Positions 36,116 through 40,585 of a DNA stretch of 64,000 nucleotides are shown one piece after another. Where the stretch lies: the IMG/VR virus record IMGVR_UViG_3300032105_000042, positions 15,693 through 79,692 of that record, one strand, 5' to 3'. Source of the DNA: a virus. The notes beneath the pieces are model-generated. The model saw only the letters and a program-made list of their open reading frames with translations, was not told the DNA's origin and made no database searches. Numbering within the stretch: the stretch's first letter is position 1; every line of letters begins with the position of its first letter. The position numbers were made by a program, and so were the translations under genes.

Positions 36116-39100
36116 TTAATCTATGGCCCCAGTGTCCTTCCGAACTTGCTCGCGCGCACTGCTGCGAACCACCTTGGAAACTCTCTCTCGTATGTCATCG
36201 CCAAGGATATCACTTAGCTCCTTCGCGTCTACTTGCGAGAAGTCGATGTCGTCAACCCCGTCGCTCTCGTCATCCTCCCCGATCAGTTCGGCGATCACAT
36301 CCTCGGCGGTCTCCGACTCAGGCTGTTCCTTCTCCTTGGACCGCTCTAGAACGCTTGACAGCAGAAAGACTACCCGTTGGATACGGTACTCGTCAGCTGA
36401 GGACAGCGCTTGTCCGGCCTCGTGGACCGCAACAGCCATTTCGAGTACTTGAGCAATCGGGTCAGAGAACTCCTCTCCGAGAGAAATTCGCACTATCTGA
36501 CCAGTAGTAATCCACCGGAAGGCAGCGCAATCCTCGTAGACTTCCTCTCCGTCGAGCCGACCAACAGCCCTACCAACGACCACGATCTGATCCGGGTTCT
36601 CGTTGATCTCAGCGATGTGACGAGCCGCCGCCTCGGCAAAGCCTCGCATGTCCTTGACATCAGTGTCCAACACACGTGCCCTACCCAGGCTATCCTCGCG
36701 GCGTCGGTCCATGATGAAGCGCGCGAAGACAGGCCTCTCGTCGTCGAGCTCCTCCATGTTCTCGGGCAGGTCCGAGCCAAGGTCCACGGCCTCGCCGTCC
36801 ACGATACGGAAGAAGCTCTTGGGACTAATCAGACGATCCACCGCCTGGTCCCACAGCTCCTCACCATAGGCTCCCTCCGCGATGAGCGAAGCCCTGTAGC
36901 CGAGGGAGATGTCCCGGAGCGTATCGTACAGCGTACCAGGCTCGTCCTCCAAGTCCTCCGCCTGCTTCAGTGGACCACCGATGGCCTGTACCTTGCAGTC
37001 GGCCGAGCTGGCCTCCACGTCGTTGGGGTTGATGCATATGGTCCTCAGTCGCTCGAAGTCGTCGGGGTCCTGCTGCCGCAGCCGCCAGAAGTTCCGCGTG
37101 GTGTCGACCTTGTCGGTACGGAAGTCGTGGTCCTCAGCCCACTCGAGGAACGCCTCCTTGGACTTCCACTTGGACTTGCGACCCGCGATGGTCTGGATGA
37201 CAAAGCCACCCTGCCTCACCTCGTCCTCGTCGTAGATGATCTCCGACGCTCGAACGATCACTGCATCGTGGGCCTGCGCTCCTTCCCCACGACTGACTCG
37301 GACCAGCTCGATGTACTTGGCGTCGACCAGGAGGTCGTCCTCCAGCCAGGCCATGAGCCTGCCCTCCTCGTAGTCGTAGACGAAGATATCGGGGTGGTTC
37401 TTCAGGGGCTCGACGTCCACCCAGCGCAGCTCCGGTGGCTCGCTGTCGAAGTCCTCGCGGATGTGCCGGGCCAGGTGACGCCACACCCCCCGACGGTCTC
37501 CGTCCGGTATGTTCGCACCTCCGCGAGCTCCGTTCAGCACCGCGATGCCTGCCGTAGAAGCACGGAAGTTCACCGCATGTCGGCCGGACGCAACGTGGTG
37601 AGGAAACTTGAAGTCTCCCTTGACCAAGTCGTCGCGCGGCTTACTCTCGCGCCAGGCTGCCATTATGAGGAGGTCTCCCACGGATGCCTCTCGCACCTCG
37701 CGGCTCGCGCTCCAGGCAGCGTCGCGACCCTGAGCCGGTGTACCATCGGGATGAGCCGTCTGGAACGTAATGGGTCCCTTGCTAGTCAGCTTGACCAGCT
37801 CTCCCGTGATGGCGTCGTCGCTCTCCTCCTCGACTTCGTACTCGACTCTGGCATCGTCCATCTCGAAGATCAGGGCACCGTCGTCGAGCGTGACCAAATC
37901 CACGTCCCCCCGCTCGATCAGTTCGCGACTGACTTCCGTCCTCTCCGGAGGCTCGCCGGAGAGCGAGACGGCTCCCAGGCTATCTATCGTAAACGAGAGC
38001 TCCTGCGGCTCCTGACTCGGGTCATCTGGATCCTTGGGAGCCAGAACTATCCCCGGAGTCGTCTCCGCGATCTTCGCCAGGTTGGCCCGCGCTAGCTCCT
38101 CCTGCTTCTCCGGAGTGAGAGCCGTCGCGACAACTGTCTTGTCACCATCTGCCGCCCGGCGTATTTCCATCACGTCGTCCGCAGTGACACCCAGGCCAGC
38201 GAACAGCTCCTCCACGTTGGCCCAGTTGTCCTGCATGTCATCGAGCCAGGCCAGATAGGGCTCCATAGTGGCTCCGTCGCTTAGAGCACGCACCACTGCC
38301 TCGGGGTTGGCCGGTAGCGGAACGATGGAGAACTCGAGCAGGTCGATCTTCTTGAAGTCGATCCCCATGGTCCGCTCACCATCCTCGTCCTCCAGACGCT
38401 CGAAGTTGACTGGTATGAAGCCTATGGACGCTGCCTTCAAGCCACCGACCTCAACGATCCGAAAGATAGTGTCGGCAAACTCGAATACGTCTCGCTCGAA
38501 GAACTCCACATCTGCGTCCAGAATGCCATCCCCGCGCTCGATCTTCGGAGACTTGCCAATCGGTGGCTGACGAGCGTCGTGAGCGAACAGCACTACTGGG
38601 TTCTTGCGGAAGTTCTTGAGCTGAATGCCCTTTGACCGTATAACATCGCCATGGCGGTCCTTGGTCTCCGTAGAGATACGGAAGCGGCGGCGTCGAGGGT
38701 GAGATTTCTTGTCATCTTCGTCATCACCTCCGCCTCCTCCCTTCTTTATCTTCATCACATCCGCGATGCGCGGGTGCTGGAGGAGCACACCCTCCAACTC
38801 GTCGGGTGTCTCGGTCAGGAGCTTGCGGGCACTCCTCTCACCGGTCCACAGACGACGTCCGGTAAATACCTGTAACTGATCCTTGTCCTTCATCGGATAG
38901 GTCCTTTCATAGTGCAAGGCCAAAGCTGCTGATCTCTCTGTCTCTCGGAGAGCCCGAAGCACAGCGCGCTCCTGTACCTCAAACCCCTGCCGAAATGCGT
39001 GGCGAAACCTCCGCTCTATTGGTATGCGAAAGCGCTCCCCTGCCTTCCAGAAATGAGCGCGACGTTCCTCTGTATCAAGATTCCTAGGCCAAACTACAGG

Positions 39101-40585
39101 AGGAGTACCACCTCTCTCCTCACCTGGAGGGTCAACTTCAGTTTGACCATCTTCCCATACAAACTTGTCAAGCCGCCCCTTCAGCTTGAGCTGTTTAAAT
39201 GACACCTCATAAAGTCCAGCCAGAGACATAGACAAAGTCGTATCTACACCAATCAATTCTACTTCAGCAATCGTGACTTTTCTTATAACCGGACGGCCAA
39301 GTATTACATCTACCTGTATCTGATCTTCATATACATTAACGACACGGAATTGGCTACCACGCTGTAGTAACAATTCAGATTCCTCTTTCAATCCGAGGTC
39401 ACCGGGAAGAGTTCGTCTCCTTCTTGCTCTACTGCTGAACAGCTTACCCGGACTAACAAAACCTGCGCGTGAATTCTTTGGCACCAGTATCTTATAGAGG
39501 ACCCTATCTGCATCTACCTTAGTTCGGCCAGCCACGAAAATTTCTGCAACAGTACGATCCAATGACGTAGATGTGAAGGCGCGGTGCTTGAACGTTCGGC
39601 CAATAGCGTCGATCGGTTTACTAACATTAAAATGCTTAGTAACACTCCGACCACCTCGCCACGCTACGACATTCTCGGGTACGCGAGTCTTCTCAAGAGC
39701 CTTCTCAATAGCTCGCCCCTCTTTCGTTAGTATGCGAGAACGGAGGTCACTATTAATCCCTCTATAACCACCTCCTGTATAGCTATTTATTCTCTTAAAT
39801 TCCTGTCCCGTTAGATCTTCCGCCCATTTTTCATAGCTCTTTTTGGCCCACTTCTGAACTTCTGGATGTGGTCTCCTTGGCTTCTCATTTATTGTGAATT
39901 CTTTCGCTGGCTCCCCAAAGCAGCCAGGATTGACCGTGCAACTGTCGTCAACCTTTGGAACTGAGATAGTCGTGCAGCGACAGTTTACCGACTCCTCCGC
40001 CGTGCTCATTGCACCAGGGAACGGACCGATCGCACCGCTTGGCGACTCAAAGTTGTCATTAACAGGCCGGATCTGACCATCCATACCAGTAGCAAGAGCG
40101 TGAGTGTCTCGGACCTTCGGGTCCTGCGTACTCAACCACTGCTTACCCTCGAAGCCAGCCTGCTTTGTAGCAGCAACTTGACCCGAGTTGAGGGCACGCA
40201 CAGACTCGGTCCTAGCGATGACCAGAGAGCGACGCCCCTGAGCGTCGGCATACACACCACGGACCCGGCGAGCCAGCTTGTTGATCCCCTCCCCGTTCTC
40301 AAAGCCCTCTCGCAGAGTGGCGCGCAGAAGCCCCCTAGTCCTATTATTGATACCAACTATCTGACTACCCGACTGCTCAGCGATGAACTGAACCACGCGA
40401 GGGTCCTTCAGATCAAAGTCTATTCCCAGACCCAGCTCCCTCAACCGCCGCTGTCCCGACGACCTTATGCCCTCGCTAAACTCACCACTGGTCGCCTTGT
40501 CCAGATCCTCGGCCTTCGACGCGTTGGAGATGCTATTAGCCTTATCGTCGTCGCTTTGTTTGACGAGTAAAGAAAAATCCACCAT
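36116..40585 (-). CDS. Polyprotein: MuF (SPP1 gp7-like) + ADP-ribosyltransferase + HK97-type prohead protease + further head-associated domains
   Basis: MuF: VIARTE, KQWLSTQDPKVRDTH, NCRCT. ART: WRG, FTSTS, KEESELLL. Protease: DRHGD, NPVVLFAH, LLEFSIVPLPANPEA. Start at ATG 40585. Confidence 0.85.
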   Translation of the reverse strand: MVDFSLLVKQSDDDKANSISNASKAEDLDKATSGEFSEGIRSSGQRRLRELGLGIDFDLKDPRVVQFIAEQSGSQIVGINNRTRGLLRATLREGFENGEGINKLARRVRGVYADAQGRRSLVIARTESVRALNSGQVAATKQAGFEGKQWLSTQDPKVRDTHALATGMDGQIRPVNDNFESPSGAIGPFPGAMSTAEESVNCRCTTISVPKVDDSCTVNPGCFGEPAKEFTINEKPRRPHPEVQKWAKKSYEKWAEDLTGQEFKRINSYTGGGYRGINSDLRSRILTKEGRAIEKALEKTRVPENVVAWRGGRSVTKHFNVSKPIDAIGRTFKHRAFTSTSLDRTVAEIFVAGRTKVDADRVLYKILVPKNSRAGFVSPGKLFSSRARRRRTLPGDLGLKEESELLLQRGSQFRVVNVYEDQIQVDVILGRPVIRKVTIAEVELIGVDTTLSMSLAGLYEVSFKQLKLKGRLDKFVWEDGQTEVDPPGEERGGTPPVVWPRNLDTEERRAHFWKAGERFRIPIERRFRHAFRQGFEVQERAVLRALRETERSAALALHYERTYPMKDKDQLQVFTGRRLWTGERSARKLLTETPDELEGVLLQHPRIADVMKIKKGGGGGDDEDDKKSHPRRRRFRISTETKDRHGDVIRSKGIQLKNFRKNPVVLFAHDARQPPIGKSPKIERGDGILDADVEFFERDVFEFADTIFRIVEVGGLKAASIGFIPVNFERLEDEDGERTMGIDFKKIDLLEFSIVPLPANPEAVVRALSDGATMEPYLAWLDDMQDNWANVEELFAGLGVTADDVMEIRRAADGDKTVVATALTPEKQEELARANLAKIAETTPGIVLAPKDPDDPSQEPQELSFTIDSLGAVSLSGEPPERTEVSRELIERGDVDLVTLDDGALIFEMDDARVEYEVEEESDDAITGELVKLTSKGPITFQTAHPDGTPAQGRDAAWSASREVREASVGDLLIMAAWRESKPRDDLVKGDFKFPHHVASGRHAVNFRASTAGIAVLNGARGGANIPDGDRRGVWRHLARHIREDFDSEPPELRWVDVEPLKNHPDIFVYDYEEGRLMAWLEDDLLVDAKYIELVRVSRGEGAQAHDAVIVRASEIIYDEDEVRQGGFVIQTIAGRKSKWKSKEAFLEWAEDHDFRTDKVDTTRNFWRLRQQDPDDFERLRTICINPNDVEASSADCKVQAIGGPLKQAEDLEDEPGTLYDTLRDISLGYRASLIAEGAYGEELWDQAVDRLISPKSFFRIVDGEAVDLGSDLPENMEELDDERPVFARFIMDRRREDSLGRARVLDTDVKDMRGFAEAAARHIAEINENPDQIVVVGRAVGRLDGEEVYEDCAAFRWITTGQIVRISLGEEFSDPIAQVLEMAVAVHEAGQALSSADEYRIQRVVFLLSSVLERSKEKEQPESETAEDVIAELIGEDDESDGVDDIDFSQVDAKELSDILGDDIRERVSKVVRSSAREQVRKDTGAID

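Follow-up and report, generated by a model that had tools for sequence, protein, structure and literature searches.

A phage head protein that combines MuF, an internal ADP-ribosyltransferase and a prohead protease in one reading frame

Fusions between the minor head protein MuF and ADP-ribosyltransferases (ARTs) have been proposed to be packaged in the virion and injected (PMC5576092, PMC9503650). ARTs make up 14% of MuF toxins, one example being the EFV toxin encoded by a prophage of Enterococcus faecalis V583, and as a rule the MuF gene directly follows the portal gene (PMC5576092). Fusions of Alt/VIP2 ARTs to MuF have been described, and so have effectors fused to a capsid-processing serine peptidase (PMC9503650). 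The SPP1 protein gp7 binds its portal and is present in 1-2 copies per virion (PMC5576092), and T4 Alt is a head-packaged ART that is injected with the DNA (PMC9503650). The locus considered here lies in a stretch of 64,000 nucleotides from an uncultivated marine-sediment phage (positions 15,693 to 79,692 of IMG/VR record IMGVR_UViG_3300032105_000042; this whole stretch is referred to as the window, and all coordinates are its own), in which one head protein of 1489 residues joins MuF, an ART and a prohead protease. MuF-ART fusions and MuF-protease fusions are already published; what is new is that all three are combined in a single frame, that the enzyme sits inside the protein, that members of one phage group document a change of MuF's fusion partner from portal to protease, and that an internal start has been retained.

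The window protein resembles several known systems in part. Like the MuF polymorphic toxins (PMC5576092, PMC9503650), it combines PF04233 with an Alt/VIP2-type R-S-E ART in a head-morphogenesis module, and its enzyme is an exchangeable module whose composition is foreign. Unlike them, it carries the toxin internally rather than C-terminally and runs on into a prohead protease, its MuF lies apart from the portal gene, and temperate-phage and immunity features are not evident in PF00589 and PF03747 searches of the record. T4 Alt is encoded by a gene of its own and guided by a short capsid-targeting sequence, whereas the window enzyme, known here from its gene, is covalently part of a MuF and protease protein. 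The two belong to the same ART clade, and a route like that proposed for Alt (prohead loading, trimming by the protease, injection; PMC9503650) could apply to both. In Orion, the gp9 gene downstream of the portal unites MuF, which lies in the N-terminal half, with a capsid protease according to the deposited annotation (PMC9584339). It lacks an ART and, as far as tested, the accessory modules A and B described below; no sequence similarity to gp9 appeared among the phage matches listed, so the fusion there is probably independent. The portal-MuF(-ART) fusions of relatives (PHROG 2662; P0006, P0007, L005) have a MuF 53-62% identical to that of the window and the same tail, but there MuF forms the downstream part of a portal fusion and ends ahead of the protease gene, the reverse of the window arrangement. 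Finally, lambda C/Nu3 and P2 gpO are nested protease/scaffold genes. They share with the window a long head-assembly ORF (open reading frame), a probable in-frame internal start and a shorter C-terminal product; in the window, the internal start is deduced from a conserved ribosome-binding site (RBS) and ATG, and the long form carries an effector enzyme.

Two neighbouring genes for head proteins, the MuF minor head protein and the prohead protease, are genuinely fused in the window ORF. On the minus strand, the frame is free of stops from 36116 to 40702 and, counted from its first ATG at 40585, gives 1489 amino acids (aa) by ORF list and translation, an exact match to record P0002 of the protein collection. 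Its main parts are the following.

36116..40585, minus strand: whole fused gene, 1489 aa plus stop (MuF core, ART cassette, MuF tail, linker, S78 protease, region X)
39953..40585, minus strand: MuF core, aa 1-211, ending NCRCTTISVPK, with Pfam Phage_Mu_F at aa 88-207
39128..39952, minus strand: low-GC inserted cassette, aa 212-486, comprising the ART core and a beta-rich extension of about 65 aa
39329-39856, minus strand: ART core, aa 244-419, Pfam ADPrib_exo_Tox (PF03496)
38894..39127, minus strand: conserved MuF tail, aa 487-564, VVWPRNLDTEERR...QERAVLRAL..., which in relatives terminates the portal-MuF gene
38891..38908, minus strand: retained RBS and start, GAAAGGA (38902-38908), an 8-nt spacer and the ATG of M565 (38891-38893)
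38186..38689, minus strand: S78 (HK97-type) prohead protease domain, aa 633-800

Phage_Mu_F (PF04233) matched with E 1.7e-13 (51.7 bits vs a cut-off of 29.6), PHROG head-morphogenesis families matched the MuF region at E 1e-33, and PHROG 595 covers MuF and ART together. Three relatives from independent assemblies (P0003, P0004 and P0005, 73-77% identical) carry MuF, linker, protease and C-terminal region in one frame, and the joint of MuF, protease and region X is uninterrupted in independent contigs (L001/L002/L010, L007 and L011). Among Logan contigs, the probable source run holds 36000-40800 in a single piece with zero differences, and a run from a different study contains 100%-identical fragments, including one internal to the ART (39358-39638). 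A preliminary description of the locus had reported a single stop-free ORF, with MuF, ART and protease at ranges that the Pfam and PHROG domains now match, and had advised checking the reads for a stop lost at 39000-38750; the frame is open, and the source-run contig crosses that stretch unchanged. A TTG at 40702 was considered as the start and rejected: its 39 extra codons overlap the region of a 102-aa gene and are missing in all homologues.

The enzyme is inserted within MuF. In alignment A1, close relatives, about 77% identical overall, are collinear with the window protein save for a clean gap of 275 residues opposite aa 212-486, flanked by the end of the MuF core (..SVNCRCTTxSxxK) and by the tail ((V)VWPxNLxTEERRxxxWxAxERxRxPIERRxRxAF..QERxVL), which a low-confidence model predicts as a long helix. 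The MuF core itself is 82-83% identical to that of the ART-less P0003-P0005, and core and tail are spaced by 3-9 residues in the portal-MuF proteins P0007, L005/L006, L009, L012, L013, L015 and the cut L004. Composition marks the same segment: the GC content at third codon positions (GC3) is 0.40 in the insert, compared with 0.63 for MuF, 0.73 for the protease and 0.69-0.80 beyond it, and overall GC drops to 0.44-0.50 at 39100-40000, where an AT-richer ART stretch had been noticed before. The ART is followed by the conserved MuF tail and then by 925 further residues. This position between core and tail points to a foreign module at a permissive MuF joint, not to a C-terminal toxin; the preliminary description had invoked the C-terminal MuF toxin pattern, which does not fit a cassette whose two flanks are contiguous in all ART-less relatives.

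Among the relatives examined, only P0006 (on contig L003) has an insert, and it is an ART at exactly the same place. P0006 is 41% identical to the window protein over the cassette, 62% over MuF and 57% over the tail, and its cassette also has a lower GC3 (0.565 vs 0.68-0.78). The two ARTs may descend from one old gain followed by several losses, or may represent two gains. Of the loci returned by the A6 scan of IMG/VR (1 viral, 9 metagenomic), not one carries a different cassette at this joint; searches of protein collections for the cassette, which were word-limited and missed even P0006, found only P0157 among longer proteins and nothing among shorter ones. In a contig of run X4, 38971 is linked to 39962 through 162 other letters; this is the ART-less form, at high depth. 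In that run, from marine sediment and from a study other than that of the source run, the word depth of the ART-less form is much higher. The hexamer GTTGAC (Val-Asp) occurs at both insert borders (39947-39952 and 39131-39136); it may be microhomology left by illegitimate recombination, or chance.

By its motifs and matches, the ART is classed as a C2/C3/VIP2/Alt-type R-S-ExE enzyme. The active-site motifs named in the preliminary description (WRG, STS and ExE) are all present, as AWR310G, S339-T-S341 and E402-S-E404.

39656..39658, minus strand: codon of catalytic Arg310 (AWRG), aligned with 'VYR' of VIP2 and kept in P0006 and P0157
39563..39571, minus strand: STS motif, codons of S339-T340-S341 (FTS339-T-S341L)
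39374..39382, minus strand: ExE motif of the ARTT (ADP-ribosylating turn-turn) loop, codons of E402-S403-E404

The ADPrib_exo_Tox match spans aa 244-419 (E 2.5e-20, 73.1 bits vs a cut-off of 23.4), the nearest solved sequences to the cassette are VIP2 (3e-10) and then Plx2A, BECa, iota Ia, CDTa and C2-I, and the 'Alt-like' PHROG 802 matches at E 9e-5. An AlphaFold model of aa 1-565 had a mean pLDDT (predicted local distance difference test) of 50, with 65-83 in the ART blocks, and was used for the ART fold match only. Foldseek with this low-confidence model retrieved CDTa, Ia, C2-I, C3, Plx2A and Lmo0066 at E ~1e-12, with a template modelling (TM) score by target of at most 0.67; given the quality of the model, this is read simply as agreement with the sequence result. 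The R, STS and ExE motifs are shared by P0006 and by P0157, an unrelated protein of 2064 aa, at just 31-46% identity, which argues for a working active site. In the R-S-E clade, an ExE rather than a QxE motif in the ARTT loop pairs with arginine as the acceptor. Arginine is therefore the acceptor predicted from the ExE motif of the window enzyme, whose probable activity is arginine-specific mono-ADP-ribosylation. Its ARTT-loop region includes a stretch of basic residues (RARRRR, aa 386-391) that is absent from P0006.

Comparison with related contigs shows how MuF came to stand before the protease. Across about a dozen of them, the usual layout is a portal-MuF gene, a protease-X gene and a capsid gene, in this order: in L003, L005, L006/L016 and L012, a gene for portal, MuF and tail is followed by one for protease-X (831-975 aa) and one for the capsid protein. 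In the window, L001, L007 and L011, MuF, tail, protease and X form one gene. When the proteins of L003 were compared with the window by tblastn, terminase matched at ~50516-52027, the portal at 48244-49551 and MuF only from 40531 downwards; the window portal is 63% identical to the portal part of P0006. By this gene order, MuF in the window clade has left the portal gene and joined the protease gene. The surroundings are those of a head module, with the capsid protein directly downstream and portal and terminase upstream.

48205..49593, minus strand: portal protein, 462 aa (Pfam Phage_portal, E 1.5e-32; PHROG 2662)
40590..40898, minus strand: 102-aa gene, its stop 5 nt before the ATG at 40585; it precedes the fusion in L001 and L007 too
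34757..36001, minus strand: major capsid protein of the HK97 fold family, directly downstream of the fusion

The junction preserves the start of the second gene. Separate protease genes (L003, L005, L006) begin with GAAAGGA, 8 nt and ATG, and their product with M..(L)FTGxRLWTG; the fused ORFs of the window, L001 and L007 keep GAAAGGA (GAGAGGA in L001), the spacing, the ATG and the residues that follow. The simplest reading is that loss of a stop codon joined the two genes and that the initiation signals of the second stayed in use, and since RBS and ATG of M565 are conserved, protease-X is probably made alone as well. The ATG at 40585 has no Shine-Dalgarno sequence, and the position of the 102-aa gene suggests that translation of the fusion is coupled to it. 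Promoter-like sites were not found inside the fused gene, and terminator-like sites are not in excess there. From these signals we infer two products, a minor full-length protein and an abundant protease-X.

A stricter model would make the fusion the sole source of protease, each protease molecule bringing one MuF-ART with it at a 1:1 copy number. The frame is continuous, without a stop, and the fusion is conserved in four lineages, both in keeping with such a model. It is nevertheless unlikely: the ancestral RBS and start of the protease are conserved in frame, whereas the full-length start has no Shine-Dalgarno sequence. HK97-type proteases are packaged in many copies, which also counts against a strict 1:1 ratio. 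MuF proteins, on the other hand, are few per virion (1-2 copies for SPP1 gp7; PMC5576092). The guaranteed stoichiometric packaging put forward in the preliminary description is doubtful for the same reason, and is the weakest part of that reading because the protease gene has kept its own Shine-Dalgarno sequence (GAAAGGA) and the ATG of M565.

The protease and the region behind it carry further conserved parts. Peptidase_S78 (PF04586) matched aa 703-767 (E 2.7e-6, 28.1 bits vs a cut-off of 21), and PHROG protease and capsid-protease families matched aa 633-817, with E 1e-15 to 1e-18 over aa 633-798. H669 (LFAHD, 38579-38581) and S720 (AASIGF, 38426-38428), 51 residues apart, are invariant in A1 and are presumed, by family knowledge rather than by alignment with a solved protease, to be the catalytic His and Ser. 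The 690 residues of aa 800-1489 gave zero matches in Pfam, PHROG and PDB sequence searches; a PDB sequence search with MuF likewise gave no credible match, and a scan of IMG/VR with protease-X returned none.

37406..37780, minus strand: module A, aa 936-1060, KGPITF...KFPHH...RHLARHI, with a K(F/L)PHH motif
36926..37228, minus strand: module B, aa 1120-1220, ...RNFWRLRQQDPDDFERLRTI..., ..NFWRLRQxDPxxF...
36119..36253, minus strand: conserved C-terminal tail, aa 1445-1489, ending TG-x-[ILV]-D (alignment A3)

Modules A and B emerged from a phmmer search with region X against 1.8 billion representatives (50%-identity clusters), which gave 2155 matches, 853 of them at E <=1e-10. Eight of the ten matches scanned carry Peptidase_S78 and the other two no Pfam family; in these ten, module A stands after the protease and module B before or after it. 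For the further head-associated domains of the preliminary description, no Pfam, PHROG or PDB family was matched, but two modules there recur beside prohead proteases. The AlphaFold model of aa 925-1225 (from a 92-row alignment) is confident (pLDDT 89.5); Foldseek against PDB found no fold match for the modules at E <=0.001, and the VIA-wide best Z was 4.5. In the ESM Atlas, the shape of module A was found also beside ClpP-type and Mu gpI-type head proteases and DUF6582. Together the two compact modules occur, without annotation, in more than 2000 representative metagenomic proteins, nearly always next to a prohead protease, and merit a family description.

The C-terminal tail is conserved among protease-X relatives that share just 22-39% identity (A3). 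The HK97 protease carries a capsid-targeting tail, and by analogy the tail in the window may be a candidate capsid-targeting segment. A complex prediction of the capsid protein (A4) with the C-terminal 160 aa of the fusion (A3) scored 0.01, which gives no verdict. In the capsid protein, the Pfam domain begins at residue 117 and is preceded by a delta-like N-terminal segment of ~110 aa, so region X is probably not the sole scaffold.

How might these parts work together? The most reasonable reading is that the head is loaded with an effector which the prohead protease sets free; it draws on the analogy of T4 Alt and on the published MuF-ART proposals (PMC5576092, PMC9503650). The full-length protein would be made at a low level through coupling to the upstream 102-aa gene, and protease-X would also be produced alone from the internal RBS and the ATG of M565, as the conserved DNA suggests. 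The full-length protein would enter the procapsid through binding of MuF to the portal, through the C-terminal tail of the protease part, or both; binding to the portal is suggested by the portal-MuF fusions of relatives (Rosetta-stone evidence) and by SPP1 gp7. After assembly, the S78 protease would cut itself and the linkers, as gp21 does in the T4 Alt analogy, and so free MuF-ART inside the head. MuF-ART would then leave with the DNA and ADP-ribosylate a host protein early in infection. This whole course of events, from loading in the head to modification of the host, is judged somewhat more probable than its competitors combined.

Several points weigh against it. The reading is drawn from sequence, and the triple fusion is represented by one phage genotype only (the source run and identical fragments in one other study); the run from that other study has no contig that bridges an insert border by at least 31 nt. 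The MuF gene is not beside the portal gene, 7.6 kb of other genes lying between. For the protease, the Pfam profile of S78 is matched over part of its length (positions 92-155 of 165), and a sequence search of PDB found no solved relative. Cleavage sites were not recognised: comparison by eye of the capsid delta/mature boundary (..DIVQKVLSSGPADEGGVFVP..) with the linkers gave no convincing motif. Lastly, MuF toxins have been reported almost only in temperate phages (PMC5576092), and the 79.8-kb record (~79% complete) contains no PF00589 integrase, other integrase types not having been searched.

The ART might instead not be delivered at all, and act late in the producing cell on host or phage assembly factors, or be an inter-bacterial toxin released by lysis. 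As the product of a late structural gene, the enzyme would be in the cytoplasm before packaging, and both low-toxicity (regulatory) and high-toxicity (competition) roles have been proposed for MuF toxins (PMC5576092). However, no immunity-like partner was seen: PF03747 found no ADP-ribosylglycohydrolase in the record (other immunity types were not searched), and the cassette, being internal to the ORF, has no small gene after it. The linkage to two head-targeted modules is also hard to explain without packaging, and action outside the delivery route is considered improbable.

Still less probable is that the ART is a recent passenger without function and the fusion a neutral loss of a stop, a protease with an internal start and a MuF tolerant of inserts being all that is required. 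The foreign composition of the cassette, the closest relatives that manage without it and the lack of a close ART relative in the protein searches would all suit a passenger. Against this, the three catalytic motifs are intact and shared with a homologue at the same site in another lineage, with only ~41% identity across the cassette; the reading frame is kept at both junctions; and the fusion has been kept across lineages ~23% divergent in protein sequence. That a chimeric contig or a lost stop codon created a false long ORF is scarcely credible: the contig is metagenomic and its insert borders are not bridged in the second study, but a single source contig covers the stretch without differences, the second study has identical pieces from within the ART, the MuF-protease joint is open in independent assemblies, and P0006 has an ART at the identical site.

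The delivery of a head-loaded MuF-ART can be placed in a wider and more speculative frame. Conceivably, the ART is a mobile internal cassette aimed at one permissive MuF joint, where the NCRCTT end of the core meets the WPxxLxTEExR tail, in any MuF-bearing head polyprotein, and the retained start makes the fusion a programmed two-product gene that yields few effector-carrying, self-cleaving molecules and many protease-only ones, with the dose set by initiation; this is offered tentatively, as the less probable of the two pictures. If the two-product reading is true, translation initiation, and not a stoichiometric fusion, sets the effector dose per virion, and the retained internal start would be a possible way for the phage to set it. 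The locus adds a well-documented case to the idea of phages that load host-modifying enzymes into heads by grafting them onto assembly proteins. Grafting onto MuF, portal and protease, three routes each described before on its own, appear here as interchangeable states of one gene neighbourhood, the ART being placed at an identical joint. Relatives with and without the ART both occur in marine-sediment metagenomes and offer a natural comparison of the enzyme's role.

Two other parts of the window deserve mention. Between the portal and MuF, whose genes are fused or adjacent in relatives, 40590-48204 carries a lysis cluster and genes for a virion protein of 357 aa (PHROG 3758) and for a 679-aa protein, together with the 102-aa gene; a lysis module within a head-gene block is unusual. 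The 679-aa ORF (40902-42941, minus strand) has no family match, and in BLAST output peptide units of the form TGAQALA..LQAGVGVMxPSG recur in it; TRF found no tandem DNA repeats at 40500-44200. Further upstream, 55542-58772 (minus strand) encodes the large subunit of a ribonucleotide reductase, split by an intein-like segment that contains an HNH endonuclease (Pfam Ribonuc_red_lgC, Intein_splicing, HNH_3 and TSCPD).

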